Source: Akkermansia muciniphila
GTDB lineage: Bacteria; Verrucomicrobiota; Verrucomicrobiia; Limisphaerales; BJHT01
Length of the DNA stretch: 64,000 nt
NCBI GenBank assembly: GCA_945861535.1
Contig: CAMAUZ010000031.1
Span: 9,761-73,760 of the forward strand
Direction of reading: 5' to 3'
Position numbers and translations under genes: made by a program. Within the stretch, counting starts at the first letter, position 1, and each line of letters starts with the position of its first letter. This document shows, in pieces, positions 36,030 to 58,466 of the stretch. The notes below the pieces were generated by a model. That model was not told the DNA's origin and searched no databases. It saw only the letters and a list, made by a program, of their open reading frames with translations.

Positions 36030-37364
36030 ATGAGCGTTATCGCTGCGGAAATCATCGTCATCTTTCTCCTGCTGCTGACCAATGGCTTCTTCGCCATGAC
36101 GGAGATCGCCGTCGTCTCGGTCCGCAAGGCGCGGCTCAAACGGCTCGCTGACGCGGGCGACGAGCGCGCCCGGGCCGCGCTCGAGCTGGCCGAATCGCCC
36201 AACCGCTTTCTTTCCACCGTGCAGATCGGGATCACGTTGATCGGCATCTTTGCGGGCGCGTTCGGCGGCGCGACCATGGCGAATGAGATTCGCGTCGGCT
36301 TGCAGCCGTTCCCCTGGCTGGCGCCCTACGGCGAGTCCATCGGGCTGGGCATCGTCGTGATCACCATCACCTATTTCTCCCTCGTGCTGGGCGAACTCGT
36401 GCCCAAGCGCATCGGCCTGAACAACCCCGAGGGGATCGCCATGGCCGTCGCCCGGCCCATGCTCCAGCTCGCGCGCGTGGCCCGGCCGGTGGTGAGTTTC
36501 CTCGGGGCCTCGACCGACGCCCTGCTGCGCATGTTTGCTTTCAAGCCCGTCAAGGACGCCACGGTCACGGAGGAGGAGGTCAAAATCCTCGTGCAGGAGG
36601 GGCTGCGCACCGGCGTGTTTCAAAAGGCCGAGACCGAGATGGTGGAGAGCGTCCTCATGCTCGACACGTTGGCCGTGCGCGACATCATGACGCCGCGCCC
36701 GAAGATCATCTTCCTCAACCGGAGCGACCCCCACGAGTTGATCTGGCACAAGATCGTCGTCAGCGCCCATTCCTACTTTCCCGTGTACGAAGGCAACCGG
36801 GACAACGTCGTGGGCATCGTTTCGGTCAAGGCCGTGTATGCGAACGTCGCCGCCGGCACGAAGGCTTCGACGGCCGCGCTGATGACCAAGCCGCTGGTCG
36901 TCGCCGCCACGCAGACGGTCATTCAACTGCTGGAATCCTTCAAACAGACCGGGAAACACATCGCGCTGGTCACCGACGAATTCGGCGGGATCGTCGGCCT
37001 GGTCACGCTGCACGATGTGATGGAAGCCATCGTGGGCGATTTTCCGTCGCCGGAGGAACGACTGAAGCCCAAGGCGGTGCGGCGCGACGACGGCTCGTGG
37101 CTCATGGACGCGATGATCGAGATTGAGCAGGTGGAAAAGGTGTTGCCCGGCCTCACCTTCGGCGATGTGGAGAGCAAGGACTACCAGACCCTCGCGGGGT
37201 TCATCGTGAAACATTTCGGTCGCGTGCCGAAGGAGGGCGAGACGTTCGAGTCGCAAGGCTATGTCTTCGAAATTCTCGACATGGACCGGCACCGCGTGGA
37301 CAAAGTGCTGGTGCTGCCGGTCAAGGCGGGCGGAGCCGGGATCAAAGCAGCCTCGGCTTCCTGA
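36030..37364 (+). CDS. CNNM/HlyC-CorC family protein (DUF21 membrane domain + CBS pair + CorC_HlyC)
   Basis: Track ORF 35886..37364. I chose Met49 (nt 36030): MSVIAAEIIVIFLLLLTNGFFAMTEIAVVSVRKARL, the typical DUF21 start. The upstream residues are encoded by repeats. Confidence 0.9.
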   Translation: MSVIAAEIIVIFLLLLTNGFFAMTEIAVVSVRKARLKRLADAGDERARAALELAESPNRFLSTVQIGITLIGIFAGAFGGATMANEIRVGLQPFPWLAPYGESIGLGIVVITITYFSLVLGELVPKRIGLNNPEGIAMAVARPMLQLARVARPVVSFLGASTDALLRMFAFKPVKDATVTEEEVKILVQEGLRTGVFQKAETEMVESVLMLDTLAVRDIMTPRPKIIFLNRSDPHELIWHKIVVSAHSYFPVYEGNRDNVVGIVSVKAVYANVAAGTKASTAALMTKPLVVAATQTVIQLLESFKQTGKHIALVTDEFGGIVGLVTLHDVMEAIVGDFPSPEERLKPKAVRRDDGSWLMDAMIEIEQVEKVLPGLTFGDVESKDYQTLAGFIVKHFGRVPKEGETFESQGYVFEILDMDRHRVDKVLVLPVKAGGAGIKAASAS

Positions 37365-37440
37365 TGGCAAAAGAGAATGACCGTCAGTCATTGCCGGTTG
37401 GCCCTGACGCGCAGCGAACCAGTCCCTATCCTTTCCGCCT

Positions 37441-38439
37441 ATGAACAATGTCGCCTTCTACGATACCAAACCCTACGACCGCGTTTACATGGAACGCGCG
37501 GAGCGGAGCAACGAGCTGCGCTGGCAGTTCCATGAGTTCCGGCTGACTCGCGAGACGGCGGGCACCGCCGGCGGCGCGCAGTCCGTCTGTGTCTTCGTCA
37601 ACGACCGGCTCGACCGGCCGTGTCTGGAAGCCCTGCATGCCGGTGGCGTGCGCCACATCGCCCTGCGGTGCGCCGGCTTCAACAACGTGGACCTGGACGC
37701 CGCGCGCGCCGTGGGGCTGGCCGTCACGCGGGTGCCGGCTTATTCGCCCCACGCCGTCGCCGAGCATGCCGTCGGCCTGTTGCTGACCCTCAATCGCAAA
37801 ATCCACCGGGCCTACAACCGGGTGCGGGAACACAACTTTTCCCTGGCGGGCCTGGTGGGATTCGACCTCTGCGGCAAGACGGTGGGCGTGGTGGGCACGG
37901 GCAAAATCGGACGCATCGCCGCGCAGATTTTTCGCGGCTTCGGGACCACGGTGCTGGCGTACGACCCGTTCCCCGCGCCCGAATGGGCCACGGTCCAGCA
38001 GGTGACCTACGTGGATTTTCCCGATGTGCTGGCCCGCAGCGACATCCTCACTCTGCATCTGCCGCTGACACCCGAGACGCACCAACTCTTGAACGAACGC
38101 ACGCTGGCCATGCTCAAGCCCGGCGCGTTTGTCATCAACACCAGCCGCGGGAAACTCATCGACAGCACCGCGCTCATTCAGCATCTCAAAAGCGGCCATC
38201 TCGGCGGGGTCGCGCTCGATGTGTACGAAGAGGAGGAGGGCATCTTCTTCGAGGACCATTCCAGCACTGTGCTGCAAGACGACGAGCTCACCCTGCTGCT
38301 GTCCTTCCCCAATGTCCTCATCACTTCCCATCAGGCGTTCCTCACCCAGGAGGCGTTGGGCGAAATCGCCCGCGTCACGACGGCGAACCTGCTGGCGCTG
38401 GGGCGGGGCGATTTTCTCCCGGGCAGCCGGCTGGCCTGA
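37441..38439 (+). CDS. ldhA: D-lactate dehydrogenase (D-isomer-specific 2-hydroxyacid dehydrogenase), paralogue 1
   Basis: 332 aa. It is collinear with E. coli LdhA as I recall it: ...ALRCAGFNNVDL...VPAYSPHAVAEH...LNRKIHRAYNRVREHNFSL...GTGKIG...NTSRG...GHQAFLT-type motifs. Confidence 0.9.
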   Translation: MNNVAFYDTKPYDRVYMERAERSNELRWQFHEFRLTRETAGTAGGAQSVCVFVNDRLDRPCLEALHAGGVRHIALRCAGFNNVDLDAARAVGLAVTRVPAYSPHAVAEHAVGLLLTLNRKIHRAYNRVREHNFSLAGLVGFDLCGKTVGVVGTGKIGRIAAQIFRGFGTTVLAYDPFPAPEWATVQQVTYVDFPDVLARSDILTLHLPLTPETHQLLNERTLAMLKPGAFVINTSRGKLIDSTALIQHLKSGHLGGVALDVYEEEEGIFFEDHSSTVLQDDELTLLLSFPNVLITSHQAFLTQEALGEIARVTTANLLALGRGDFLPGSRLA

Positions 38440-38980
38440 GTCGTAACGATGCCATGACGGGAGCGCGGGTGTCCGCGCCCGCCCCCGGCGCGCACTGAGC
38501 CGCAACCCAAGGAGCGCGGCTGTGTCCGCCGAGGACCAGCCGCAGCAGCCCCGAAACGTCGTGGGCGCCCGTAGAAAACAGACGCTTCCCGTGCGGTCAA
38601 CCTGCTGCGGCTGGTGCTCCGCGCACACAGCCGCGCTCCGGGAAAAATCCACGCGGCCCGCGAGGATTTGGCAGGGTTGTAGTACAGGGCGGCGGAGCCG
38701 CAACCCCAGCGGAGCGCGGCGTTCACGCCGCTTCACCGTTTGAACCTCGTCGCGGGTCCGACCCTGTCCGCACCGCTCACGCTGAAGCGGCGTAAATGCC
38801 GCGCTCCGGGAAAAATCCTCGCGTGGCGCGAGGCTTTCGGCGCGCGGGCGGTCCCCGCCTGCGCGGCACCGCACCGGCGACAACGGCAGATATTCCTCAC
38901 ACCCCGGCTCCGAAGTTGCCGCTGCGACCGGGGACCGTTCGCGCTCGGCTTGGGTTGCGGCTGCGCCTTCAGGGCAATCA

Positions 38981-39880
38981 TCAGCCAGCCAGGGCGGCTT
39001 GCGCGTTGGCGGTGACGGCGACCACGGCCGGGTGGGTCAGCTTGCGTTCGGCGGTGATGGCGTAGAACGGCTGCCGGCAATCCTCGGTGCGCCCGATGGC
39101 TTGGAAGTCGTAGCTGCCGACGGCCTCCGCCACCACCAGGGTCGGGAGGGCGAAAAAGCCCAGGCCGTCCGCCGCCGCCACTTTCATCAGGGCCGGGTCG
39201 TCGAACTCCGCCACCAGGCGCGGACGAAGCTGCCGGGCTTGAAACCATTTCTCGAGCGAGCGGCGCAGGGCGATGTTGCCCGCCGGCAGCAGCACCGGTG
39301 CGTCGTTTAGTGACCGGGGAAATTTGCGCTTGAGGGTGGCGGCCAGCGTGCGCTCGGCGCAGAAGGTCACGCCGCAGTCGCCGAGGAAGTGGTTGAAGAC
39401 CTTGAGGGGCATCGAACTGGGCGCGGGTTCGTCCGCCAGCACAATATCCAGCCGGTAGCCGGCCAGTTGCCCGAGCAGGTCGGCCACCTTTCCCTCGCGG
39501 CAGACGGCCTGGATGGGCTGCGCCAGGTTGAAAATAGGTTTGATGATTTGGTAGCTCACCAGCTTGGGCAGCGAGTCGGCGATGCCGATGTGGACGCGCA
39601 ATGGCCGCGCCGTGGGCACTTGCCGGGCGGCGTCGAGGAGTTCCTGACCCAGCGAAAAAATCTCCTCGGCGTAACCCAGCACGCGATGCCCCGCCTCCGT
39701 AAGCGTCAGGGCGCGTCCGCCACGACGGAAGAGCTTTTCGCCCAGCACGCTCTCCAGTGCGGCAAGCTGCGCGCTGATGGTGGGCTGGGAGACGTGCAGT
39801 TTGTCGGCCGCCTTGCGCAAGCCGCCCTCTTTGGCGACCACCCAGAAGTAACGCAGGTGGTGATAGTTCAGGAATTCCAT
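38981..39880 (-). CDS. LysR-family transcriptional regulator (NhaR-like N-terminus)
   Basis: 299 aa. The sequence is MEFLNYHHLRYFWVVAKEGGLRKAADKLHVSQPTISAQLAALE. It is transcribed divergently from the 40254 operon. Confidence 0.9.
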   Translation of the reverse strand: MEFLNYHHLRYFWVVAKEGGLRKAADKLHVSQPTISAQLAALESVLGEKLFRRGGRALTLTEAGHRVLGYAEEIFSLGQELLDAARQVPTARPLRVHIGIADSLPKLVSYQIIKPIFNLAQPIQAVCREGKVADLLGQLAGYRLDIVLADEPAPSSMPLKVFNHFLGDCGVTFCAERTLAATLKRKFPRSLNDAPVLLPAGNIALRRSLEKWFQARQLRPRLVAEFDDPALMKVAAADGLGFFALPTLVVAEAVGSYDFQAIGRTEDCRQPFYAITAERKLTHPAVVAVTANAQAALAG

Positions 39881-40253
39881 GGCGGCATGGTTATTCGGTT
39901 TAACCTAAGCGTCTATTCCAAAAGTCGTAATTTTCTAAGGGTGCTGACGACCCCATTTTGACCCCATGAAAACGGCAGATCCGGTTCCAGCGCGCGCCGC
40001 CACCGAACCAGCCTGCGAGGTCTCGCTGCGGCAGCCAACCAGCAGCATTGTCCCACCCGTGGATATTGCTCCGGCGGAAAGCCCCGAAAGCCTTGGCGAG
40101 GGACAGTGGCGGAGTGGCCTCCCGTTGTTCGTCCGCGAGCCGGCCATCCGGCACTGGGGAATTAACGAATGATTCGCCGCCAAAGCGGTCAGGCCTTTTG
40201 CCGGGTGACCACAACCGGAGAGCGAAAAACCAACCACCAAACCACCTCCCACC
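39881..40253. promoter_or_regulatory. Divergent LysR / membrane-protein-operon control region
   Basis: This is an inference from the divergent arrangement. It has an AT-rich stretch at 39885-39945 and a direct repeat (gaccccat at 39949-39956 and 39960-39967, 11-bp phasing). I could not assign -10 or -35 elements with confidence. Confidence 0.3.
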
Positions 40254-40646
40254 ATGAACACCAAGACCGCCGGCTACCTGATTCTTTACGGGGCATTCCT
40301 CATTGTCATGGGGTTGCTCGGCTTTCTCTCGAACCCGGAAAAGGCGAAGACCGCCCTGCTGTCCGGCGGCACTTTCGGCGCGCTTTCGATCTTCTGGGGC
40401 GTGCTCGGGGCGCGCGGCATCCGGTGGAGCCTGCCGGGCGCCATGGTGACCACCGGTCTGCTGACGCTGGTCTTCGCGTGGCGGGCGAGCGTGGGCTGGC
40501 TGGCGGTGTTCGAGGGCAAGGCGGAGAAACTTTTCGCGGCGGTTTTGATCACGGTCATGCTGACGGGTTCCGTGCTGATGCTGCTGAATTTGGTGAGCGC
40601 TCGCAAACCCGCCGCGGCCGGGAAGCCGGCTGCCCCCCGGGCCTGA
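40254..40646 (+). CDS. Small four-helix integral membrane protein (TMEM14-like)
   Basis: 130 aa with four hydrophobic segments. The sequence is MNTKTAGYLILYGAFLIVMGLLGFLSNPEKAKTALLSGGTFGALS... Confidence 0.65.
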   Translation: MNTKTAGYLILYGAFLIVMGLLGFLSNPEKAKTALLSGGTFGALSIFWGVLGARGIRWSLPGAMVTTGLLTLVFAWRASVGWLAVFEGKAEKLFAAVLITVMLTGSVLMLLNLVSARKPAAAGKPAAPRA

Positions 40647-40662
40647 TTCACGCGCCCATCCG

Positions 40663-40995
40663 ATGACCACGCGGCCGCTCCCACTGACTCGCATGAAACG
40701 AAGCAAGCGCATCCTCGTGGCGGTGGTGGGCGGGACGGTGCTGGCCGTGGGGGTCGCCTTAACGGTGCTGCCCGGTCCGGCCTTCATTGTGATCCCCGCC
40801 GGCCTGGCGATTCTGGCGGTGGAATTTGCCTGGGCGAGACGCTGGCTGCGTTCGGCGCGCGTGCTTTTGCCACGGGGTTCCAAAGACGATGTTCCATCGC
40901 AGAAGCGGCCAACCCTGAAATCCCTGCGGCGGAGTGCTGGCTACCTGCTTCGGCAGGTAAGCCGGACGCTGCTGCCAAACAAAAAACACGTATGA
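40663..40995 (+). CDS. PGPGW domain-containing membrane protein
   Basis: 110 aa. The sequence VALTVLPGPAFIVIPAGLAILAVEFAWARRWL matches the PGPGW family pattern. An ATGA overlap joins it to the next gene. Confidence 0.75.
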   Translation: MTTRPLPLTRMKRSKRILVAVVGGTVLAVGVALTVLPGPAFIVIPAGLAILAVEFAWARRWLRSARVLLPRGSKDDVPSQKRPTLKSLRRSAGYLLRQVSRTLLPNKKHV

Positions 40996-41681
40996 TAATC
41001 GCACTCTTCCTGGTCACCCTAGCCATCGGCCTCCTGGCCCAATGGCACGTCAAACGAACCTACTCCCGCCACCTCCGTACCCCGACAGTGGGCGGCTACA
41101 CGGGGGCGGAGGCGGCGCAGGCCATCCTGCAGCAAGCCGGCATCACCAATGTGTCCATCTACGAACACGAAGAGTTGCTCGGCGACCACTACGATCCCAA
41201 GCACCGACGGTTGGTGCTTTCCTCGGCCAACTACCACGGCACTTCGGCGGCGGCGCTGGGCGTGGCGGCGCACGAATGCGGCCACGCCATCCAGCACAAG
41301 CAGGCGTACGGCCCGCTGGAATTGCGCATGGCGGCGGTGGGCGTCACCGGCATCGCCAGCCAGCTCGTGATGTGGATTCCGCTGCTGGGCATGTTCACCG
41401 GAGTGCTGTCGGGCAAGACCAGCCTGCTGATCATGGCCGTGGCGTGGGGTGTTCTCATGGCCTTCAACCTCGTCACGCTACCGGTGGAGTTCGACGCCTC
41501 GCGCCGCGCCAAACTGGTGCTGGCGAACCTGGGCTTCATCCAGCGCGGCCCCGAAGCCGCCGCCGTGAACCAGGTGTTGAACGCCGCCGCCTGGACGTAC
41601 GTGGCCGCATTCATCTCGTCGCTGCTTTATTTCCTCTGGCATCTGCTGCCCCTGCTGGGGGGCGAGCGGCGGCGGGACTGA
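40992..41681 (+). CDS. Putative neutral zinc metallopeptidase (YugP-like, membrane-anchored)
   Basis: 229 aa. It is collinear with YugP-type proteins (GYTGAEAAQAILQQAGI...DHYDPKHRRLVLS...AAHECGHAIQH) and has C-terminal TM helices. Confidence 0.88.
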   Translation: MIIALFLVTLAIGLLAQWHVKRTYSRHLRTPTVGGYTGAEAAQAILQQAGITNVSIYEHEELLGDHYDPKHRRLVLSSANYHGTSAAALGVAAHECGHAIQHKQAYGPLELRMAAVGVTGIASQLVMWIPLLGMFTGVLSGKTSLLIMAVAWGVLMAFNLVTLPVEFDASRRAKLVLANLGFIQRGPEAAAVNQVLNAAAWTYVAAFISSLLYFLWHLLPLLGGERRRD

Positions 41682-41720
41682 CTGCTCCAGCGCATCCGCA
41701 ACCTCCCCCCTGACTCGCCC

Positions 41721-41819
41721 ATGAAAATCCAGTTCCGATTTCGCGGTCTCAACGCCAACGCCAGCCTGCGGGGCTGGCTGGAACAGCGACCCGACCGGGG
41801 CAAAGGCTCCTGCCGGTGA
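41721..41819 (+). pseudogene. Possible remnant of an HPF/RaiA-family (ribosome hibernation) gene
   Basis: MKIQFRFRGLNANASLRGWLEQR resembles the N-terminus of short HPF/RaiA proteins and then terminates after 32 codons. A further piece (SVAAAVPEQQRDCAPA) lies in another frame at 41816 onward. Confidence 0.4.
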
Positions 41820-41901
41820 GCGTCGCCGCAGCGGTGCCGGAACAGCAGCGCGACTGTGCCCCCGCCAAAAGAAATCAAAGCCGTCGTGCCCAACCCGTCC
41901 C

Positions 41902-42375
41902 ATGCAACGGCTCACTGAAGGTGTCCACCGCTTTCAGCGCGAGCAGTCCGGTCGATACCGGGCGCGCTGCAAGAAGCTGCCCCGGCAGGGCCAGAATCCG
42001 GAAACCCTTTTCCTCACCTGCTCGGACACGCGCGGGCTCGCCGAGTTGATCACCCAGAGCCAGCCCGGCGATTTGTTCGTGGTGAAAAAACGTCGGCAAC
42101 ATCGTGCCCCCGGCCACCGTCAGCGGCGACACCGACTCCACGGCTGCCGCCGCCATCGAGTTTGCCATGCAGGTGCTCAAGGTGAGCGACATCGTCCGGT
42201 GCGGACATTCGCAATGCGGCGCGGTGGCGGCGCGGTGGCGGCGCTGCTGGCCGGCGGGGTGGACCGCCAGGCTCGGCCGCACCTTTCCCGCTGGCTGGAC
42301 CTGGCCGTGCCGGTGCGGCGTGCCATCGCCAAGGAATACGCCCATCTGCCCGGCGGTGCCGAACGGCTGCGCACC
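41902..42375 (+). pseudogene. Beta-class carbonic anhydrase, frameshifted twice and C-terminally truncated
   Basis: Frame 1 reads MQRLTEGVHRFQRE...[33 protein letters not shown]. Frame 2 after the A6 run (42085-42090) reads [48 protein letters not shown]. The sequence returns to frame 1 after an 11-bp tandem duplication (42218-42239): [32 protein letters not shown]... Confidence 0.8.
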
Positions 42376-42800
42376 ACCGCCCCGTTCATTGTCTATACCT
42401 CGAACGTCTGCGCCACCCTCGGGCTGCGCTCGATGTTCTTCGCCGTGGCCGGCATCATGAAACGGTTCCACTACCTGCACTACGGGCTGGCGGCGGTGCT
42501 CGTGTTCGTCGGCACTAACCCGTAACCATGCAGTGAGGGCGACCGGAGCGCGGCCTTCAGGCCGCAGAAATGTCCACCCGCAGCGACCGTTCCAAACCAC
42601 TCGAACCCGTACCTCCACGCACCATTGAGTGAGTCAAAAAAGGCGTCTGGAAATTTGCTCGCCCCACACAGTATCCACACTTCTGCGGCCGGAAGGCCGC
42701 GCTCCTGCTGCATCGTCACGGCTAAGATGCTGGTGGCGGACTGCTACAAAATCCCGACGTTGGCTTCGCTGCTCCACGCTCTGCGCGCCAGCCAAAAGAA
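42376..42800 (+). pseudogene. TerC-family membrane protein, C-terminal fragment split by a MITE
   Basis: [45 protein letters not shown] is fused in frame to the carbonic anhydrase remnant and is interrupted at 42519-42721. It continues KMLVADCYKIPTLASLL after the insertion. Removing the element and one CTAA restores ...VFVGTKMLVAD... Confidence 0.75.
42519..42721. mobile_element. MITE family C, copy 1 (203 bp) with perfect CTAA target-site duplication
   Basis: CTAA flanks it at 42515-42518 and 42722-42725. The terminal inverted repeats are cccgtaaccatgcag...ggagcgcggccttcaggccgcagaa and ttctgcggccggaaggccgcgctcc...ctgcatcgtcacgg. Confidence 0.85.
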
Positions 42801-43108: not shown

Positions 43109-43849
43109 ATGAAAATCCTCCATGCCATTCTGCTCCTCACCCTCCTCGCCGGCACCCCCATCCATGCCGCTGACCGGCAGGATCACAACATCCATCTCTG
43201 GCTCAACTACGTCGGCGATCATCCCCTCGGCGCCGGCCCGTGGGGCGTGCATCTCGAAACTCAGATACGCCGCGCCGACTTCGGCCGGAACTGGCAACAA
43301 TTCCTGCTCCGCCCCGGCGTCAACTACGCCTTCAGCCCCGCCCTGAACGCCACGCTTGGCTACGCGTTTGTCGATACCTACCGGTACGGCGATTATCCCG
43401 CCCTCGACACCTTTCCTGAGCACCGGGTCTGGGAGCAACTCTCCTACACGCACAAAGCCTTCGACTTGGAATGGCAGCATCGCTTCCGGCTCGAGCAACG
43501 CCACCTCGGCGAACTGGGCGCCAACGGCAGCGGCGGTTTCAACGTGGTGAACTTCCGCTACGAAAACCGCTTCCGCTACCAACTGCGCACCACGGTCCCG
43601 CTGGCCGCGGACCAGAAGACCTATCTCGCCTTGTGGAATGAACTGTTCTTCAACTTTGGTCGCAACGTGTCCGGCAACGACTTCGATCAAAACCGCGCCT
43701 TCATCGGCCTCGGGCGCAAGCTCACCGACACCACCCGGCTGGAAGTGGGCTTCTTGGAGCAAACGCTGCAACGCCGCGGCGGGACGATCTGGGAAAACAA
43801 TCACACCGTCGCCGTGTGGCTCACCTCCAAGCTGCCGTTCGGAAAGTAG
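43109..43849 (+). CDS. DUF2490 domain-containing outer-membrane beta-barrel-like protein
   Basis: 246 aa with a signal peptide (MKILHAILLLTLLAGTPIHA). The sequence WLNYVGDHPL...LRPGVNYAF...LGYAFV...EHRVWEQL...RFRLEQR matches my recollection of DUF2490. Confidence 0.8.
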   Translation: MKILHAILLLTLLAGTPIHAADRQDHNIHLWLNYVGDHPLGAGPWGVHLETQIRRADFGRNWQQFLLRPGVNYAFSPALNATLGYAFVDTYRYGDYPALDTFPEHRVWEQLSYTHKAFDLEWQHRFRLEQRHLGELGANGSGGFNVVNFRYENRFRYQLRTTVPLAADQKTYLALWNELFFNFGRNVSGNDFDQNRAFIGLGRKLTDTTRLEVGFLEQTLQRRGGTIWENNHTVAVWLTSKLPFGK

Positions 43850-44055
43850 GCGTACGGACGTCCGCAACTCGATGCCCCGGTCATCCGCCGGAACAGCCGG
43901 TGACCGCAGTTCCTGGCCACGCCACTGGTCATCCGATCCCTGAAGCCCCAACCATTCGTCGCGCCGAATCAACGGGACCGGCCGACCCCGGGGCGTCGCC
44001 CGTCCCGCAGCAGCACCGTCACCACTCGTCGCCTCGGGCCGATCGGGCCGCCAGC

Positions 44056-44465: not shown

Positions 44466-44481
44466 ATCAGTTTTTGCGGAA

Positions 44482-47569: not shown

Positions 47570-47582
47570 CCAACGATTTACC

Positions 47583-51221: not shown

Positions 51222-52429
51222 ACATTCTCGCCGTCAACAGTGGCAGCACCTCGCTCAAGCTCGATTTGATGCAGGTCGAATCGTCCGGCGCCGCGCCGCG
51301 CCGCCTGGTGCGTGGCCGGGTGGAACGCTTCGGGCCGGAGGCGGCGACGGACTTCCAACTCGGTGACGGCGAGCGTTTCCGCAGCTCGAAAAACGTAGCC
51401 GACCATCGAGCGGGCGTGAGTTGGTTCCTCGACAACCTGGCCGCCGCCTCCGGGGGTACGCTGCTGCCCATCGCGGCGGCGGTTCATCGCGTCGTGCATG
51501 GCGGCGCGCGTTTCACCGCGCCGGCGCTGCTGGACGAAGGAGTGCTCGCCGAGTTGGAAGCACTGAGCGAACTGGCCCCGCTGCACAATCCGCCCGCGTT
51601 GACCGCCATCCGCGCCGTGCAGTCCGCGCTCGGAGCGGACGTGCCGATGGTGGCCGTTTTCGACACCGCCTTTCACCGCGCCCTGCCACCGCGCGCCGCA
51701 AACTATCCCTTGCCGCACGAACTCACCGCGCGCCACGGCCTGCGCCGCTTCGGGTTTCACGGCATCGCCCACGACTGCATGCTCCGCCGCTACGCGCAAC
51801 TGGCCGGGGTGCCCATCGAGGAGGCGGTGCTCATCACGTTGCAACTCGGGGGAGGATGTTCCGCGGCGGCGATTCGTGGCGGGCATTCCGTGGACACTTC
51901 GATGGGTTTCACGCCGCTCGAAGGTTTGATGATGGGCACGCGCACGGGCGACCTCGACCCCGGTCTGCTGCTTTATCTCGCGCGCAAAGAGGGCCTGGGC
52001 GTCGCCGATTTGGAGAACCTGCTGAACCAACGTTCTGGTCTGCTCGGCGTTTCCGGCCGGTCAGCGGACCTGCGCGAGGTGTTGGCCGCTGCACCCCATG
52101 ATGCGCGAGCCGCACTCGCCGTGGACATGTTTTGCTACCGGGCGCGGAAGTATATCGGCGCCTATCTCGCCGCGCTCGGTGGCGCGCAAGCCGTCGTGTT
52201 CGGCGGCGGCGTCGGCGAAAATCAGCCGCTCATCCGGCTGCGGATCTGTGAAGGCTTGGACTGGTTCGGACTGGTGCTCGACCCGGCGCGCAATGCGGCG
52301 GCCGCGGGTGTCGAAGGTCGGATCAGTCGTGACGATGCCCGCGTTCAGGCGTGGGTCGTGTCCGTGGATGAAGCCGCGCTCATGGCGGAAGGCGCCGCCG
52401 AATGTCTGCGCGGTAACCATGCAGTCTGA
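51218..52429 (+). CDS. ackA: Acetate kinase
   Basis: 403 aa. The sequences are MNILAVNSGSTSLKLDL...HRVVHGG...FDTAFH...GFHGIAH. An ATGA overlap joins it to xfp. Confidence 0.95.
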   Translation: MNILAVNSGSTSLKLDLMQVESSGAAPRRLVRGRVERFGPEAATDFQLGDGERFRSSKNVADHRAGVSWFLDNLAAASGGTLLPIAAAVHRVVHGGARFTAPALLDEGVLAELEALSELAPLHNPPALTAIRAVQSALGADVPMVAVFDTAFHRALPPRAANYPLPHELTARHGLRRFGFHGIAHDCMLRRYAQLAGVPIEEAVLITLQLGGGCSAAAIRGGHSVDTSMGFTPLEGLMMGTRTGDLDPGLLLYLARKEGLGVADLENLLNQRSGLLGVSGRSADLREVLAAAPHDARAALAVDMFCYRARKYIGAYLAALGGAQAVVFGGGVGENQPLIRLRICEGLDWFGLVLDPARNAAAAGVEGRISRDDARVQAWVVSVDEAALMAEGAAECLRGNHAV

Positions 52430-52672
52430 GCGCGGCGCGTGGGCGTCTCGCCCGCTCAGCGCGGTCAAACCACGGGTGGGAGCACTTTTCCCGACGCGCA
52501 CAAAGGGCACCGAACGGTGAGCCGAAAGCGGCGATTGCGGCCAGCGTTTCCGGCCCGATCCCGCGGTGAGCGGGCGCGACGCCCGCGGTCCAATCACTGC
52601 ATGGTTACGGCTAGGGTTTGACCCCATTGGGATCGCGGGCCTTCCGGTTATCCTCGCTCCAACTGAAATGAC

Positions 52673-52978
52673 ATGACCAACGAATCCATCGCCTGCTTCT
52701 TGATCGCGATCGCCTTGGAGCCGGGGATGCCGCGCGGTCGCGGTTGCCGCGGCGGCTTGGGCGTGCTCGCGGGCGACACGATTCGCTCCGCTGCCGGACC
52801 GCCCGCGCGGTTGAAGGCAATCGCGTCCCGCGCCAGCCGCCGGTCGATCGTCTCGGGCGGCACGGCGCATCCGCGGTCCGACGCGGGCCGGCGCGTCCGC
52901 CAGCACCTCGCGCGCAACGCCTCGCACAGCAACCCCCGGCGGCTGGTTCAGGAATACGTCGCGCAAGCCTGGTCCTGA
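52673..52978 (+). pseudogene. Alpha-glucan (glycogen) phosphorylase remnant: N- and C-terminal ends retained, core deleted
   Basis: IACFLIAIALEPGMP..GGLGVLAGDTIRSAA resembles the conserved N-terminal block (IAYFSMEI.LEPGMPTYSGGLGVLAGDT.RSAAD). The tail SNPRRLVQEYVAQAW resembles the C-terminal F.s.RMv.eYv block. Only 101 codons remain, against roughly 700-850 aa in intact homologues. Confidence 0.5.
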
Positions 52979-53016
52979 CCGTCTCTGCGCCGCAGCCCCC
53001 CAACCCCACCCAACCG

Positions 53017-55965
53017 ATGCCCCAACTCGATCCTCCTCCCAAAAATCCTCCGGCAAAAAAACCGGCGGGCGACGATGTCGCGAAGCGGGCCTACGCCATC
53101 TATGAGAAGGAAGGCCGGCCGCAAGGCCGTGACGTGCAGAATTGGTTGGAAGCCGAAGCCACCGCGCCGCTCGCCGCTGCTGCGCCGTCCGCCGCCACTG
53201 CGCCGCCCGCCGCCACTGCGCCGCCCGCGGGCGAGGCCGCGCCGACCACGGCCACCGAGCAGGCGTGGCATCACTTACCGGCCGATGAATTCGTGAAACT
53301 TCTCGGCGTAGCTCTGTCCGCCGGCTTGTCGGCGGATGAAGTTGCGCGTCGCCAGAAAGAGTCCGGCCCGAACCGCGTCACCGCGCGGCGGGGCACGCCG
53401 GCGTGGAAGAAATTTCTCCAGCAGTTCAACCAGCCGCTCGTTTACATCCTGCTTGTCGCGGTCGCGGTCACGGCAGCCCTCGGCGAGTGGGTGGATGCGT
53501 CGGTCATCTTCGGCATCGTGCTGTTCAATGCCGTCGCCGGCTTCCTCCAGGAATCCAAGGCCGAGACCGCCATCGCGGCGCTCGCCAAGATGGTCGTCAC
53601 CGAGGCGACGGTGCGTCGCGATGGGAAAAAGCTGCGCGCCCCTTCCGAGTCGCTCGTCCCTGGCGATGTCGTGTTGCTGCAATCCGGCGACCGCGTGCCC
53701 GCCGACCTGCGGCTCCTCGACATCCGCAATTTGCAGGTGGACGAATCCGCGCTCACCGGCGAGTCGCTCCCCGTGGCGAAGCAGCCCGACGCGCTGCCGC
53801 CGGAGACCGTCCTCGCCGACCGCAAGAACCTCGCCTTCGCCGGCACCTTCGTCACCAGCGGCCAGGCCGAGGGCGTCGTGTGCGCCATCGGCAACCAGAC
53901 CGAGACCGGCCGCATCGCCGGGCTAATCGCGGGCGCGGTCGAGTTGTCCACGCCGCTCACGAAACAAATCGCGCAGTTCAGCAAGCTTGTGCTCTGGATC
54001 ATTCTGGGACTGGCGGCGGCGACCTTCGCGCTCGGCGTCGCGCGCGGCGAGAAACCGGCCGAGATGTTCATGGCCGCCGTGGCGCTCGCGGTCGGCGCGA
54101 TTCCCGAGGGACTGCCCGCCGCCGTCACCATCGTGCTCGCCATCGGCGTGTCCCGCATGGCGAAGCGGCAGGCCATCATCCGCAAGCTGCCCGCCGTCGA
54201 GACACTCGGCAGCACCACCGTCATCTGCTCGGACAAAACCGGCACGCTCACCGAGAACCAGATGACGGTGCGGGAAATTTTCGCGGGCGGAAAACGCTAC
54301 GAACTCACCGGCGCGGGCTACGAACCGAAGGGCGAACTCCAGCTCGAGGGCGCGGTCGTGAAGTTGCCCGAGCATCCCGCACTCGCCGAGTGCCTGCGGG
54401 CCGGCGTGCTCTGCAACGATTCAAAACTCGGACAGGAGGACGGGCGGCCCAAGGTGCAGGGGGATCCCACCGAGGCCGCGTTGATCGTCGCCGCCGAAAA
54501 GGGCGGGCTGAAACACGACGACCTCGTTCGCGAAGCGCCGCGCGTGGACATGATCCCCTTCGAGTCCGAGCACATGTTCCGCGCCACGCTGCACGAGGCG
54601 GGCGAGGGCCGCGTCATCTATCAGGTCGGCGCGCTCGAAGCGCTGCTCGACCGCTGCACCGACGCTCTTGGCGACAACAACGCGGTCGGCGAACTCGACA
54701 AGGACGCCGTGCATCGCGCCGCCGAGACGATGGCCACGCGCGGCCTCCGCGTGCTGGCCCTCACGCGTCGGCAAGTGGACAAACAGCACGCCAAGCTCGA
54801 GCACGCCCACGTCGCCGAGGCGCTCACGTTTCTCGGCTTGCAAGGCATGATCGATCCGCCGCGCGCCGCCGCCATTGCTGCCATCGGCCAGTTCGCCCGC
54901 GCTGGCATCACCGTGAAAATGATCACGGGCGACCACCTCGTGACCGCCCGCGCCATCGCCGAGCAGATTGGACTGAAGGGCAAAGACGAGCACACGCCGC
55001 TCGTCGCGCTCGCCGGCGGTGAACTGGAGAAAGTTTCCGACGCCGATCTGCCCGACGTGGCCGAGCGCACCGCCGTCTTCGCCCGCGTCGCGCCCGAGCA
55101 GAAACTTCGCCTCGTGCAGGCGCTTCAGTCGCGCGGCCACGTCGTCGCCATGACCGGCGACGGCGTGAACGACGCCCCCGCGCTCAAGCAGGCCGACATC
55201 GGGGTGGCGATGGGCATCAGCGGCACGGACGTGGCGAAAGGCGCGGCCGCGATGATTCTCACCGACGACAACTTCGCCAGCATCGAGGCCGCCGTGGAGG
55301 AAGGCCGCGGCGTGTTCGACAACCTCACCAAGTTCATCGTCTGGATCATCCCGACCAACCTCGGCGAGTCGTTGATGCTGCTGACCGCCATCGTGCTCGG
55401 CCTGCCGCTGCCGTTGCTGCCGCTGCAACTCCTCTGGATCAATCTCACCGACACGCTGCTCGGGCTTTCCCTGGCGTTCGAGCCGAAGGAGGGCGACGTG
55501 ATGAGCCGCCCGCCACGCCCGCCGAAGCAGTCCTTGCTACCGCTGCCGCTCATCCGGCGTGCCGGACTCGTGTCGTTCATCATGGTGGCCGGCGGGTTGG
55601 GCCTGTTCTGGTGGGAAATGCGCGTGGCGCAGACCGGGGAGGCCGTGGCCCGCACGGTGGCCGTGAACGTCATCGTGCTGATCCAGCTCTTTTACCTCTT
55701 CAATTGCCGCTCGCTGCAGCGCACGGCCTTCGCCATCGGGCTGTTCACCAACCGCTGGGTCATTGCCGGTTCGCTGGGCATGGTGGGCGCGCAACTTCTC
55801 TTCACCTACGTGCCGGTGATGAACCGGCTCTTCCACAGCGCGCCGATCTCGGGTTGGGCGTGGCTGCGCATCCTGGGCGTCGCGGCGGTGGTGTATGTCG
55901 CCGTCGAAGTTGAAAAATGGCTTCGCTTCCGGCGGGGTCGCGCCAGCGCCGGCGTGCCCGCGTGA
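53017..55965 (+). CDS. Cation-translocating P-type ATPase (P2/SERCA-like), paralogue 2, with N-terminal DUF2934-like extension
   Basis: Track ORF 52744..55965. I chose Met92 (nt 53017). The N-terminus (DVAKRAYAIYEKEGRPQGRDVQNWLEAEA) matches the DUF2934 pattern. An Ala/Pro linker follows, containing an 18-bp x2 repeat (about 53190-53226). The remainder is an ATPase core collinear with paralogue 1 (CSDKTGTLTENQMTV, MTGDGVNDAPALKQADIGVAMG). Confidence 0.92.
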   Translation: MPQLDPPPKNPPAKKPAGDDVAKRAYAIYEKEGRPQGRDVQNWLEAEATAPLAAAAPSAATAPPAATAPPAGEAAPTTATEQAWHHLPADEFVKLLGVALSAGLSADEVARRQKESGPNRVTARRGTPAWKKFLQQFNQPLVYILLVAVAVTAALGEWVDASVIFGIVLFNAVAGFLQESKAETAIAALAKMVVTEATVRRDGKKLRAPSESLVPGDVVLLQSGDRVPADLRLLDIRNLQVDESALTGESLPVAKQPDALPPETVLADRKNLAFAGTFVTSGQAEGVVCAIGNQTETGRIAGLIAGAVELSTPLTKQIAQFSKLVLWIILGLAAATFALGVARGEKPAEMFMAAVALAVGAIPEGLPAAVTIVLAIGVSRMAKRQAIIRKLPAVETLGSTTVICSDKTGTLTENQMTVREIFAGGKRYELTGAGYEPKGELQLEGAVVKLPEHPALAECLRAGVLCNDSKLGQEDGRPKVQGDPTEAALIVAAEKGGLKHDDLVREAPRVDMIPFESEHMFRATLHEAGEGRVIYQVGALEALLDRCTDALGDNNAVGELDKDAVHRAAETMATRGLRVLALTRRQVDKQHAKLEHAHVAEALTFLGLQGMIDPPRAAAIAAIGQFARAGITVKMITGDHLVTARAIAEQIGLKGKDEHTPLVALAGGELEKVSDADLPDVAERTAVFARVAPEQKLRLVQALQSRGHVVAMTGDGVNDAPALKQADIGVAMGISGTDVAKGAAAMILTDDNFASIEAAVEEGRGVFDNLTKFIVWIIPTNLGESLMLLTAIVLGLPLPLLPLQLLWINLTDTLLGLSLAFEPKEGDVMSRPPRPPKQSLLPLPLIRRAGLVSFIMVAGGLGLFWWEMRVAQTGEAVARTVAVNVIVLIQLFYLFNCRSLQRTAFAIGLFTNRWVIAGSLGMVGAQLLFTYVPVMNRLFHSAPISGWAWLRILGVAAVVYVAVEVEKWLRFRRGRASAGVPA

Positions 55966-56112
55966 CCGGAGCCGCACGGAAGTTCGACGGCGACCAGTCG
56001 CCTGCGCAAAAGCGGTGACGAGGCACCGCACTCCAAAATTGCGCGCCTGCGGCAACCGGCGACCAAGATATGCGCTCGCGCCACGGCGGGGTTTTGGAAT
56101 AGAAGAATCGCC

Positions 56113-57102
56113 ATGCAAGCAACGCCTGCCAAAAAGCCCGGCCACGCCCGGCCCAAAACCGCCGCGCCCGCCGCCGCCGCGGACATTCACTTCCAAAAAC
56201 TGTTCGTCACCACGGACTTTTCGGACGCGGCGCTGGCGGGGGTGCGGTGCGCCGTGGCGCTGGCGAAGCAGCTCGGGCTGGACGCAACGTTGCTCCATGT
56301 CGTCGAGCCGCCGACGCGGCTGGGCGGGATGGAAGCGGTCGCGCTGGCCCGCACGGAGGCCGAGGTCGCGGCGCTGGCGCGGAAGCAACTGGCGGCGCTC
56401 GCCGGGCAGGAGAGCGTCAGCGGCGTGCGGTTGACCGCGAGCGTGCGCACCGGCAAGCCGGTCCACGAAATCACCACGGCGGCCGGCGAAGGCGGGGCGG
56501 ATTTGCTGGTGATGGCGACGCACGGACGCACCGGCTGGCAGCGGGCGTTGCTGGGCAGCACGGCGGAGCGCGTCGTCCGCCACGCGCCTTGTCCGGTGCT
56601 CACGGTGCCGAGCGGGGCCGGGGACACGGGGGCGGGCAAGGTCCGCCCGTTCCAGCTTCAGAAGCTGGTTGTGCCGGTGGATTTCTCGCGGCTCGCGCAG
56701 GCCGCCCTGCCGTGGGCCACGTTTCTCGCGGCGCAGTTCGGTGCCGAACTTGTCCTGCTCAACGTCGTGGAAAAGTTTCCCATCGACTATCTGCTCGGGC
56801 AGGAGCTGACCGCCGACACGCTGGCGCGCCTGCGGACGCAGGCCGCCGCCGAGTTGGAACCGCTGGCCGCGGACCTCGTCAAGGCCACCGGATTGAAGGT
56901 GTCGGTGGTCGTTCGCGACGGCACACCGTACACGGAAATCTGTCAGGCGGCGGAAACGCTGGGCGCGGACCTGATCGTCCTGACCACGCACGGGTACACG
57001 GGCCTGCAACAGGTCTGGCTCGGCAGCACCGCCGAGCGCGTCGTCCGCCACGCATCGTGTCCCGTGCTGACCGTGCGGGAACTGAACCAAAAAAACGTAT
57101 GA
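56113..57102 (+). CDS. Universal stress protein, tandem two-domain
   Basis: 329 aa with two USP units. Each ends in GSTAERVVRHA.CPVLTV, and each contains an ATP-type motif (ATHGRTG / TTHGYTG). Confidence 0.9.
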   Translation: MQATPAKKPGHARPKTAAPAAAADIHFQKLFVTTDFSDAALAGVRCAVALAKQLGLDATLLHVVEPPTRLGGMEAVALARTEAEVAALARKQLAALAGQESVSGVRLTASVRTGKPVHEITTAAGEGGADLLVMATHGRTGWQRALLGSTAERVVRHAPCPVLTVPSGAGDTGAGKVRPFQLQKLVVPVDFSRLAQAALPWATFLAAQFGAELVLLNVVEKFPIDYLLGQELTADTLARLRTQAAAELEPLAADLVKATGLKVSVVVRDGTPYTEICQAAETLGADLIVLTTHGYTGLQQVWLGSTAERVVRHASCPVLTVRELNQKNV

Positions 57103-58466
57103 GAATCATTTGCGGGACCGACTTTTCCAAACCGGCGGCGCAGGCGGCCACTGCGGCCGCGGCGTTCGCCGCGCAGTTCGAGGACAGCCTGCAGCTCGTC
57201 CACGTCCGCGAGGGCACCGGACTGGCGGCCCTCGATCCGGGCGTGCTGGCGACGCTGGCCGCGGGCGTCGCCGGGCGGCTCGGTACGGAGGCGGACCGGC
57301 TGCGCCGGCTCGGGGCCGTCGTGAAGGAGCAGGTGGTCACGGGCGTGCCGGACGAAGAACTGGTGGCCCTCTCCCGCCGCCGCGGCGCGCGCCTGCTCGT
57401 GCTCTCCTCGTTGGGCCGCCGCGCGCCCGGACGCTGGCTGATCGGCAGCGTTTCCGAGCGCGCGGCGGAGGGCGCCGCCTTGCCCACGCTGGTGGTGCGC
57501 GACGCGGCCCCGTTCACGGCGTGGGCCGCGGGCAAGCGGGCGTTGAAGGTTTTGGTGGCGGTTGATTTCACCATTCCCGCTGCGGCCGCGCTGCGCTGGG
57601 TCAAAGAACTGCAGCGCGTCGGGCCGTGCGACATCATCGTGGCGCACGTCGCCTGGCCGCCGGCGGAGCAGGCGCGACTGGGCCTCGACGGCCCGCTGTC
57701 GCTCACGGAGCTTCCGCCGGCGGCGCAGCAGGGCCGCGAACGCGAGCTCATGGACACGGTGCGGGAAATCCTCGGTGCTGACGCCGCGCGGGTGCGGGTG
57801 GTGCCCGGATGGGGTCGCGCCGACGCCGCCCTCCTCGAGCTGGCGGGGCAGGAGTCGGCTGATCTCGTCGTCACCGGCACCCGCCAGCAGCACGGGCTGG
57901 AACGGCTCGCCGGCTCATCGGTGTCGCGCGGTCTGTTGCGGTACGCGCCGATGAGCGTGGTTTGCGTGCCCGCGCCGGAGGCCGTGGCGCACGGAGTCGG
58001 CGCGCTCCCGCGGCTGCAGCGCGTGCTGGCCACGACCGACTTCTCGGTGCTCGGCGACCGCGCCATTCCCTACGCCTACGCCGCGCTGGTCCACGGAGGC
58101 GTGGTCAAACTCATCCACGTCCTGCCGCCGTGGGAACTGCCCGGCCCGCTGGTGCCGCATTACCAACCCGGGCGGCTGACCCGGGCGCAGCACCAGCAAC
58201 TGGCCGCCGATTCCCTGGTGAAATTACAGGCGCTCATCCCGCCCCAGGCCGCCGCGTGTGGCATCGTCACCGAGGTGGAAATCATTTTCGGAACCAATCC
58301 GGCCACCGCCATCTGCCAGACGGCGGAGCAGTTCGGGGCGGACCTCATCTGCCTGGGCACGCATGGCCGGGCGGGGCTTTCCGCCGCCGTCCTCGGCTCG
58401 GTGGCGAACGCCGTGATGGCCCGCAGCAAACGGCCGCTGCTGGCCGTGCCGCCGACGAAGGCGTGA
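57099..58466 (+). CDS. Universal-stress-protein-like, three USP-type domains
   Basis: I chose the ATG at 57099, which forms an ATGA overlap with the upstream usp gene. The protein (MRIICGTDFSKPAAQ...) is 455 aa. It contains three units: ...GSVSERAAEGAALPTLVV, ...GSSVSRGLLRYAPMSVVCV and ...GSVANAVMARSKRPLLAV. The 739-aa track ORF 56247..58466 has the same frame and stop, so its extra 284 aa are an upstream extension; across 56247-57098 it runs out of frame over the first usp gene. Confidence 0.85.
   Translation: MRIICGTDFSKPAAQAATAAAAFAAQFEDSLQLVHVREGTGLAALDPGVLATLAAGVAGRLGTEADRLRRLGAVVKEQVVTGVPDEELVALSRRRGARLLVLSSLGRRAPGRWLIGSVSERAAEGAALPTLVVRDAAPFTAWAAGKRALKVLVAVDFTIPAAAALRWVKELQRVGPCDIIVAHVAWPPAEQARLGLDGPLSLTELPPAAQQGRERELMDTVREILGADAARVRVVPGWGRADAALLELAGQESADLVVTGTRQQHGLERLAGSSVSRGLLRYAPMSVVCVPAPEAVAHGVGALPRLQRVLATTDFSVLGDRAIPYAYAALVHGGVVKLIHVLPPWELPGPLVPHYQPGRLTRAQHQQLAADSLVKLQALIPPQAAACGIVTEVEIIFGTNPATAICQTAEQFGADLICLGTHGRAGLSAAVLGSVANAVMARSKRPLLAVPPTKA

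Follow-up and report, generated by a model that had tools for sequence, protein, structure and literature searches.

A partly decayed gene cluster with phosphoketolase, CtpF-type ATPases and universal stress proteins in a verrucomicrobial genome, and its possible role in survival under energy limitation

A stretch of 64,000 nt from the Akkermansia muciniphila assembly GCA_945861535.1 (contig CAMAUZ010000031.1, positions 9,761-73,760; hereafter the window, to which all coordinates are relative) carries between 36030 and 58466 a cluster of genes for fermentation, cation transport and stress response, together with the remains of several others. The window has a G+C content of 65%, and the genes flanking the cluster belong to families typical of Planctomycetes and Verrucomicrobia (DUF1501, DUF1552, PSD/PSCyt). 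Genes were identified with Pfam, with NCBIfam against its curated cut-offs and by sequence search of the PDB. An earlier note on this DNA had reported a CNNM gene, two ldhA copies, two SERCA-like ATPases, a coupled xfp-ackA pair and five universal stress protein (USP) domains in two coupled genes, and every one of these is present. From comparison with relatives, the region consists of two neighbouring conserved modules, A (38981-42525, plus the CNNM gene at 36030) and B (44843-58466). The genes of module B, with the additional ldhA copy that lies upstream, are the following.

37441-38439, + strand: LdhA1, a putative fermentative-type D-lactate dehydrogenase (Pfam)
44843-47569, + strand: ATPase1, a CtpF-type P2 ATPase (Pfam, PDB, transmembrane motifs)
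47583-48581, + strand: LdhA2, 13 nt downstream of ATPase1 (Pfam, PDB)
48765-51221, + strand: Xfp phosphoketolase (Pfam; NCBIfam, 1136.5 bits against a cut-off of 962)
51218-52429, + strand: AckA acetate kinase (Pfam; NCBIfam, 372.7 bits against a cut-off of 293.4)
52673-52978, + strand: relic of glgP (alpha-glucan phosphorylase), an in-frame open reading frame (ORF) of 101 codons with large internal deletions
53017-55965, + strand: ATPase2, a second P2-ATPase subtype (Pfam)
56113-57102, + strand: two-domain tandem USP (Pfam, 2 stretches)
57099-58466, + strand: three-domain USP (Pfam, 3 stretches), its start overlapping the stop of the preceding USP gene (ATGA)

An ATGA overlap likewise joins the stop of xfp to the start of ackA. 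The two LdhA proteins are 74% identical; the top PDB matches are fermentative D-lactate dehydrogenases (E=1e-110 to 1e-97), and all NCBIfam models for D-lactate dehydrogenases score under their cut-offs. The two-domain USP has an identical copy on CANEZI010000015.1, from the metagenome-assembled genome (MAG) GCA_947444175.1, and in several ENA metagenome assemblies, with identical genes in samples of the ERZ2728xxxx and ERZ2726xxxx series. The glgP relic is treated as a gene by the MAG annotation. Direct Pfam and PDB sequence searches failed to detect it; tblastn searches align it with parts of intact PF00343 phosphorylases from the N-terminal, central and C-terminal regions, and the genes of these enzymes adjoin xfp/ackA in four related loci (L101, L105, L124 and L126; L numbers denote the loci compared).

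The families of module B are found together in other genomes; the lack of such a conserved neighbourhood would, according to the earlier note, have refuted its reading. Two surveys were made, one anchored on ATPase1 with one genome per species, giving 80 loci, and one anchored on Xfp in metagenome contigs. The closest ATPase relatives come from Pedosphaera, Limisphaerales and Opitutaceae MAGs. USP genes adjoin the ATPase gene in 14 of the 80 loci and ldhA does so in 12. Operons of USP, ATPase and LdhA genes recur in other Verrucomicrobiota, for example the same-strand arrays USPx2-USPx3-ATPase-USP-LdhA in L007 and USPx3-ATPase-LdhA in L038, and same-strand ATPase-LdhA pairs occur in L009, L017, L032 and L043. 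Homologues of the two-domain USP adjoin the ATPase in L007, L008, L012, L015, L090 and others. Those of the three-domain USP lie directly upstream of it in L007, L008, L035 and L037 (43-51% identical) and in L038 (35% identical), and upstream with a gap in L093. Clustering of ATPase neighbours without prior choice of families added a PPDK/PEP-synthase-type enzyme in 7 loci, Na+/H+ exchangers in 5 and a protein with an ADP-forming acyl-CoA-synthetase domain in 4.

The metagenomic relatives are more compact. In the group closest by Xfp (about 90-93% identical) the genes form co-directional arrays: Zn-peptidase-HPF-REC-REC-USPx2-USPx3(x3)-ATPase-Xfp-AckA-LdhA in L090 and L096, where HPF is a ribosome hibernation factor; HPF-REC-REC-USPx2-USPx3-TMEM14-ATPase-Xfp in L134; and TMEM14-CBM-PGPGW-Zn-peptidase-HPF, followed further on by USPs-Xfp-AckA-MarC and then LdhA, in L092. 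Genes of ion homeostasis are inserted in some of them, an Mrp antiporter in L089 (ATPase-USP-Mrp-Xfp-AckA-MarC-GpsA) and a Kef-type exchanger and a Na/Pi cotransporter in L088 (Kef-USP-Na/Pi-ATPase-Xfp). More distant loci retain AckA-Xfp with a P-type ATPase, glgP or both, as in L101 (glgP-ATPase-AckA-Xfp); of 77 related loci, 37 have AckA and Xfp side by side. Most genes of the compact relatives are less than 100 nt apart or overlap, so that co-regulation there would come by co-transcription rather than from a shared operator. In L087-L096, L110 and L134 Xfp is 90-93% identical to that of the window, while the adjacent AckA is about 60-63% and the ATPase 61-80% identical, which would reflect either unusually strong constraint or a separate exchange of xfp.

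As an internal control, matches per 10 kb were counted up to 3 kb from the anchor gene and beyond that distance.

USP near ATPase: 0.49 within 3 kb, 0.05 beyond
LdhA near ATPase: 0.26 within 3 kb, 0.04 beyond
ATPase near Xfp: 0.47 within 3 kb, 0.06 beyond
AckA near Xfp: 1.16 within 3 kb, 0.06 beyond

The enrichment of USP, LdhA, AckA and ATPase genes close to the anchors is thus 7-20 fold. These values bear on one rival explanation of the region, a chance juxtaposition of unrelated genes brought together by rearrangement in a repeat-rich genome. Many repeats resembling miniature inverted-repeat transposable elements (MITEs) and several pseudogenes lie in the region, a 97%-identical strain is arranged differently and one gene (DUF2490) resembles an unrelated insert, all of which chance would accommodate. 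However, synteny kept across many independent loci and across phyla, together with the local enrichment, largely refutes this explanation, and we regard it as hardly credible.

Module A is organised around a LysR-family regulator and the genes that diverge from it.

36030-37364, + strand: CNNM/CorC-family transporter (DUF21-CBS-CorC_HlyC; Pfam)
38981-39880, - strand: NhaR-like LysR-family regulator (Pfam)
39886-39941, - strand: AT-rich conserved element directly upstream of the LysR start codon, a putative operator and divergent promoter
40254-40646, + strand: TMEM14-like small membrane protein, the first operon gene in the window (weak Pfam match)
40663-40995, + strand: PGPGW-domain membrane protein (Pfam, E=2e-16)
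40992-41681, + strand: Zn_peptidase_2 metallopeptidase (Pfam, E=5e-68)
41721-41816, + strand: relic of hpf, 32 codons and then a stop, placed after the Zn-peptidase gene
41902-42232, + strand: relic of a beta-carbonic anhydrase (beta-CA), covering its N-terminal half and frameshifted near 42087 (Pro_CA matched by Pfam in two frames, E=1e-7 and 8.5e-13)
42382-42525, + strand: relic of TerC, the C-terminal 47 residues (Pfam TerC, E=4e-8)

The LysR protein scores 207.6 bits against the NCBIfam NhaR model, the next best family reaching 81.6 bits. It has hundreds of homologues of 70-98% identity, several of them labelled NhaR by NCBI or JGI. An AT-rich block of about 55 nt on its 5' side is kept in all six loci aligned, whose LysR proteins are 70-100% identical to that of the window. 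Within it, at 39915-39931, lies a LysR-type transcriptional regulator (LTTR) box of the T-N11-A type, ATT-N11-AAT (ATTACGACTTTTGGAAT). The conserved element is present as a single copy in the window, with 0 expected by chance, and the stretch 39886-39941 is probably the operator and divergent promoter. By its syntenic conservation, this NhaR-like protein is the candidate regulator of module A.

The operon opposite the LysR homologues is also kept in six loci. It reads Band7-Band7-(TMEM14-like)-CBM-Zn-peptidase-HPF-CBM-CNNM-TerC-beta-CA in L184; L183 has almost the same array with PGPGW and a PHO4 transporter. The other versions are TMEM14-Zn-peptidase-ABC2-TerC-UPF0114-CA at the P0136 locus, CBM::PGPGW-Zn-peptidase-HPF followed further on by TerC-SbtA in L178, where PGPGW is fused to the glycogen-binding CBM, and HPF-CBM-CNNM-CA in L180. 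Since the LysR homologues face so strongly conserved an operon of these families, the TMEM14, PGPGW and Zn-peptidase genes of the window and the hpf, CA and TerC relics are its partly decayed remainder. At 32 codons the hpf relic is too short to be picked up by Pfam or PDB sequence searches; it matches the HPF of L092 in BLASTP (E=2e-6) and occupies the position at which intact HPF directly follows the Zn-peptidase gene in L090, L092, L178 and L184. Intact TerC is found in the LysR-divergent operons of relatives and on the Rhodococcus plasmid described below; intact beta-CA is likewise found in LysR-divergent operons, and CA adjoins the ATPase in Nitrospira loci. The four relics that the earlier note had recognised (hpf, beta-CA, TerC and glgP) are thus real, the CA and TerC relics by Pfam and the hpf and glgP relics by synteny with BLASTP or tblastn. 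Its assignment of these families and of CNNM to one grouping is borne out by neighbourhoods of the same kind elsewhere.

The small proteins of module A have counterparts near module B genes in other genomes. The TMEM14-like protein has homologues of 76-77% identity in L092 and L134, and LysR-adjacent ones in other loci, and PGPGW genes stand directly upstream of the ATPase in L014, L018, L020, L030 and L068. The CNNM protein, whose best NCBIfam match is PaeA-like and under the cut-off, is encoded within the LysR-divergent operon in L180, L183 and L184. It belongs to a module A family and lies, in the window, on the far side of the LysR gene. The CNNM-LdhA pair also occurs in the 97%-identical strain (L181 and L182). 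A small ORF of the AMPK1_CBM (glycogen-binding) family at 27270-27587 on the + strand is 51% identical to the CBM gene within the L092 cluster; CBM proteins recur in the LysR-divergent HPF operon.

Both ATPases have the full set of Pfam P-type domains, and their nearest solved structures are SPCA1, LMCA1 and SERCA. In the alignment to SPCA1 the DKTGTLT and GDGVNDA motifs are present, and AIPEGLP is found in both copies. ATPase1 has VGAIPEGL in transmembrane segment 4 (TM4) and WVNMMTA in TM6, where the canonical Asp is missing. It shares with most of its homologues the signature VGAIPEGL and W(I/V)NM(M/T)TA, with Gly at the position of SERCA A305 and no Asp at that of D800. ATPase1 also has Gly at the position of SERCA E771 (46960-47090, TM5/TM6), where most orthologues retain Glu, and in this it is unlike CtpF. 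ATPase2 carries the A305G change; its TM6 (WIN-LTDT) has a one-residue deletion that shifts the Asp. It has an N-terminal extension of 83 residues with a DUF2934 domain (53017-53265), not seen among the orthologues retrieved. The ATPase2 subtype is found in a dozen other loci, including L009, L010, L013 and L017. The two ATPases are 75% identical to each other, and ATPase1 is 85% identical to its L007 homologue. Because each subtype has closer orthologues in other genomes (79-85%) than its partner in the window, the pair represents old paralogues, ATPase2 being a sister subtype. A recent tandem duplication of ATPase and ldhA was considered and rejected, given the 74-75% identity of the paralogues and the closer orthologues of the ATPase subtypes elsewhere.

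With moderate confidence, we read the region as joining two conserved modules that would keep the cell alive when respiration cannot supply energy. In module B, phosphoketolase would split sugar phosphates to yield acetyl phosphate, from which acetate kinase would make ATP, and D-lactate dehydrogenase would re-oxidise NADH. This ATP would be spent on the CtpF-type cation pumps, which would maintain ion gradients, and the multi-domain USPs encoded beside the pumps may act as nucleotide-binding modulators under stress. Module A, in relatives where it is intact, would contribute small membrane proteins, the Zn-peptidase, HPF and glycogen-binding CBM proteins, with CNNM, TerC and beta-CA presumably serving ion and pH homeostasis. 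The genes of the cluster may be co-expressed, and the inducing signal could be energy or oxygen limitation, possibly ionic stress. In the window the cluster is eroding: hpf, CA, TerC and glgP persist as relics and the gaps are filled by MITE-like repeats. The programme that the earlier note had drawn from these genes, of glycogen mobilisation, ATP from phosphoketolase and acetate kinase, lactate formation and ribosome hibernation, remains reasonable in its broad lines and agrees with the synteny. However, as the copies of hpf and glgP in the region are dead, the region as it stands encodes neither hibernation nor glycogen phosphorolysis.

A role in surviving energy limitation is plausible, by analogy, because homologous families are induced by low oxygen in Burkholderia cenocepacia, Mycobacterium tuberculosis and Pseudomonas aeruginosa. 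The lxa locus of B. cenocepacia is a single chromosomal cluster of 50 genes. Low oxygen induces them together, 2- to 240-fold, and the locus is required to persist in anoxia, supporting survival and not growth (Sass et al. 2013, PMC3721108). It encodes six USPs of one or two domains, an acetate kinase (BCAM0293) flanked by the USPs BCAM0290-92 and BCAM0294, a cation-transporting ATPase (BCAM0318) listed beside the USP BCAM0319, and two-component and other regulators; its authors already draw a parallel to DosR-regulon genes, the ATPase included (PMC3721108). The clustering of USPs with acetate kinase and a cation ATPase is common to lxa and the window. In contrast, Hsp20, a class II RNR, PHA synthesis, alcohol dehydrogenases and a phosphate acetyl/butyryl transferase are lxa genes that set that locus apart, and neither phosphoketolase nor lactate dehydrogenase occurs once in the text of PMC3721108. 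The induction of lxa at low oxygen was measured and is driven by an FNR/Anr-like TGA-N6-TCA motif, whereas the window cluster has no FNR-like box in its candidate promoters.

The DosR regulon offers a second comparison. It includes a hibernation-factor-like protein and CBS proteins, and the USP Rv1996 adjoins Rv1997 (CtpF) in M. tuberculosis. The Xfp-AckA-LdhA route is not known to be part of it. Like the window it is rich in USPs and has a CtpF-type pump and a hibernation factor, the latter a relic in the window and intact in relatives; unlike the window cluster it is dispersed and depends on the NarL-family regulator DosR and a palindromic box. M. tuberculosis CtpF, which is DosR-regulated and mediates Ca2+ efflux, carries the substitutions A305G and D800A relative to SERCA (PMC6879984), and the same two ion-site changes are found in ATPase1 and most of its homologues. 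For P. aeruginosa, higher expression at low oxygen or in anaerobiosis is reported for the ATPase PA1429, which is 48.6% identical to ATPase1 and also lacks the TM6 Asp, for the phosphoketolase PA3613, for ackA and for four usp genes. The P. aeruginosa genes are scattered and depend on Anr, of the FNR type, whereas neither an FNR-type regulator nor such a box was found in the window. In dark-anaerobic cyanobacteria Xfp and AckA give ATP from stored glycogen without respiration. The glgP genes that adjoin xfp/ackA in related loci recall this arrangement; the window differs in that its glgP is a relic and that it has no link to photosynthetic metabolism. Taken with these comparisons, the gene content suggests that the cluster is a new variant, based on phosphoketolase and linked to HPF, of the known loci for low-oxygen or dormancy survival.

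The earlier note had placed the cluster under a NarL-type two-component pair about 4 kb downstream, by analogy with DosR.

62791-64000, - strand: NarL-type response regulator (62791-63504) and a REC-PAS-HisKA_3 kinase cut by the window end (Pfam)

A DosR-like regulon run by this pair would account for the presence of a NarL-family regulator and a PAS kinase near so many USP domains and a CtpF-type ATPase, and other two-component parts are found in related clusters: L090 and L134 carry two REC-only genes, and in L110 a PAS hybrid kinase stands divergent from ATPase-Xfp-AckA. However, three unrelated genes separate the pair from the USP genes. The REC-PAS-HisKA_3 kinase partner is retained with the orthologous response regulators (83, 63 and 60% identical), and in none of the four other contexts compared (L172-L177) do these pairs lie next to a USP, ATPase or Xfp gene. 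Their neighbours are MadL/MadM with an acyl-CoA synthetase (L172-L174), DUF1501 or unrelated genes. The best NCBIfam match of the regulator, under the cut-off, is MctR-like (monocarboxylate-transport regulator), and with the MadL/MadM malonate-transporter context this hints that the pair may control organic-acid uptake. The pair was accordingly rejected as regulator of the cluster on the synteny of its orthologues, and a DosR-like regulon under its control seems very unlikely; the regulator that is syntenic with the cluster is the NhaR-like LysR protein. Of the dormancy logic proposed in the earlier note, the richness in USPs, the CtpF substitutions and the low-oxygen response of homologues in three model organisms hold, and the regulator and its box do not. 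Module B may still receive a two-component input, in view of the REC-only genes and the PAS hybrid kinase, though on present evidence it would not come from the NarL-type pair.

Several results weigh against a survival role under low energy supply. Xfp, AckA and LdhA could equally serve ordinary fermentative growth. In Methylacidiphilum SolV, a verrucomicrobial methanotroph, xfp and ackA lie on separate contigs and are not induced in an O2-limited chemostat. Xfp and AckA are beside none of the 80 ATPase-anchored genome loci, so that the full gene set is lineage-restricted, and modules A and B are separated in several genomes (L178, L180, L183 and L184). Motif discovery on upstream regions of the cluster, as the earlier note had advised, yielded nothing: a k-mer search of six upstream regions of the window found no sharing above the shuffled null, and neither did one of 75 pooled upstream regions of related clusters (10-16 nt, 1-4 mismatches). 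FNR-like TTGAT-N4-ATCAA sites give 17 matches in the window against about 8 expected, all in coding or relic sequence and 0 in candidate promoters, and matches of the DosR-like GGGAC-N4-GTCCC type are below chance. The window encodes no oxygen sensor, and the only conserved regulator, being NhaR-like, points to Na+ or alkaline stress and not to oxygen.

Two other candidate sites were discarded. The palindrome GCAAAWTTTGC, spotted by eye in some upstream regions, is not enriched in the window. The 17-mer CACCGCACTCCAAAATT, upstream of both the CNNM gene and a USP gene, is not a specific operator because it is part of a repeat family that is also present at 24800-24994. MITE-like repeats make up much of the intergenic DNA, among it most of the 1 kb upstream of ATPase1, and would give spurious shared motifs. 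Matches to consensus promoters and terminators were at chance level, and an Rfam scan of the window found no RNA families.

The nature of the conserved regulator leads to the most serious alternative, in which the region is an island for cation and alkaline-pH homeostasis under the NhaR-like LysR protein, responding to Na+, pH or ionic stress and not to oxygen, with the fermentation genes merely supplying ATP. Its core would be the ATPases, CNNM, TerC and CA, joined in relatives by Mrp, Kef, SbtA and Na/Pi transporters. The LysR protein scores best against the model of NhaR, in E. coli the LysR-type Na+-responsive activator of nhaA, and has a conserved LTTR box and divergent ion-homeostasis genes: it adjoins operons with CNNM, TerC, CA and SbtA. 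Moreover, LysR homologues of 33-46% identity stand beside the CtpF-type ATPase itself: in the Planctomycetales and Desulfobulbaceae MAGs (L040, L073 and L075) they are divergent from it, and in L086, a gammaproteobacterial MAG, the homologue lies upstream in the same direction. The upstream regions of these ATPase-linked homologues have some words in common with that of the window LysR gene, which is suggestive only. The Mrp and Kef systems, Na/Pi transporters and Na+/H+ exchangers of relatives also fit, as does the reduced Na+ tolerance of the M. tuberculosis ctpF mutant (PMC6879984). On the other hand, HPF, the numerous USPs, Xfp-AckA, LdhA and glgP have functions outside ion homeostasis, and low oxygen induces the counterparts of the ATPase, xfp, ackA and usp genes in the three model bacteria. 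The operator occurs once in the window and is not found in front of any module B gene, and the NhaR score falls just under the curated cut-off of 219. Whereas E. coli NhaR acts on nhaA, the window-type LysR faces an operon of 6-12 genes with HPF, Zn-peptidase, CNNM, TerC and CA. We regard the ion-homeostasis island as rather unlikely.

Module B could also be an ordinary heterofermentative (phosphoketolase) sugar operon of a facultatively fermentative verrucomicrobium, used in the growth phase, with the USPs and ATPases as bystanders. Xfp, AckA and LdhA form the core of heterolactic fermentation, several loci come from Opitutaceae and Pedosphaera-type MAGs, and SolV expresses xfp and ackA constitutively. 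Yet the fermentation genes are tightly linked on the same strand, often with overlaps, to genes for multi-domain USPs, HPF and ion pumps, the cluster has no genes for sugar transporters or kinases, and homologues respond to low oxygen in strict aerobes. A growth-phase sugar operon thus seems distinctly improbable, and survival under energy limitation is retained as the preferred reading.

The pairing of a CtpF-type pump with USPs reaches beyond this lineage, recurring in Verrucomicrobiota, Nitrospirota, Desulfobulbaceae and Actinomycetota. Rhodococcus opacus plasmid pR1CP1 brings together TerC, a CBS protein, four USPs, CNNM (as "hemolysin family") and a CtpF-type ATPase that is 53% identical to ATPase1 and has the same Asp-less TM6 signature. 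Among plasmid-borne homologues this USP/CNNM/TerC context was found only there and not in the Paracoccus, Methylocystis or P. aeruginosa records; in Marinobacter a small USP fragment about 2.3 kb downstream is all that is present. A bolder proposal, speculative and unlikely to hold in full, is that USPs, an Asp-less CtpF-type ATPase and a source of substrate-level ATP (Xfp-AckA, often with glgP or LdhA) form a cross-phylum unit of anoxic maintenance, in which ATP derived from glycogen would be channelled to the pump and the USPs would gate it, and which in Verrucomicrobiota would be coupled to the HPF/CBM/CNNM/TerC/CA operon regulated by the NhaR-like protein. If so, this unit would keep up membrane potential and ion gradients in non-respiring cells, and a single ionic or energetic signal would link ribosome hibernation, glycogen and ion homeostasis.

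Verrucomicrobiota abound in soils and waters where oxygen fluctuates, and little is known of their survival of anoxia or starvation. The cluster and its more compact, intact versions in relatives provide a concrete set of genes that can be tested in culture and followed in metatranscriptomes. A CtpF-type pump beside a USP was already known from mycobacterial dormancy and from Burkholderia lxa; because the pairing recurs across these phyla, the role of the Asp-less pump subfamily becomes a general question. The NhaR-like regulator and its operator beside an HPF-containing operon likewise offer a testable entry to the control of hibernation in the phylum.

Remodelling of the region, which the earlier note had suspected from its duplicates and pseudogenes, is supported by the pseudogenes, by the repeats and by the rearranged 97%-identical strain, but not by the duplicates, which are old paralogues. 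In two contigs of that strain (L181 and L182) an extra canonical Ca2+-ATPase of 914 aa (VAAVPEGL / WINLVTDGLPA) lies between the RND pump gene acrB and CNNM, an interval of only 268 nt (35712-35980) in the window, and homology ends at window position 40761, inside the PGPGW gene. The extra ATPase and this break show that rearrangement of the region is recent and ongoing at strain level. A family of MITE-like elements of about 220 nt is present at 42508-42734, 44161-44381 and 62237-62465, with terminal inverted repeats of about 54 nt (…GGAGCGCGGCCTTCAGGCCGCAGAA…) on either side of a spacer of about 105 nt. Other intergenic repeat families link 44480-44694 with 62465-62679, 38500-38810 with 26478-26565 and 31300-31750 with 44027-44796. 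The first two MITE-like elements stand on either side of a gene that is absent from all related loci compared and probably belongs to neither module.

43109-43849, + strand: DUF2490 gene (Pfam)

Other repeats were noted around the cluster. A heavy-metal-type RND operon, OEP-HlyD/HMBD-AcrB (about 27588-35537), sits between the CBM gene and CNNM and is bracketed by direct repeats of 185 nt (27626-27810 and 35533-35717; 88% identical, each internally palindromic); it could be an inserted cassette. Immediately upstream of ATPase1, 95 nt (44702-44796) share 79% identity with 31655-31749, a stretch of equal length some 100 nt upstream of the gene for the RND pump; this may be a repeat-borne promoter. 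Finally, an inverted match of 104 nt (88%) connects 24800-24903, upstream of an alpha/beta-hydrolase gene, with 55935-56038, which takes in the final 30 nt of the coding sequence of ATPase2 and its downstream flank. The match resembles a footprint left by another ATPase 3' end or by a mobile terminator region.

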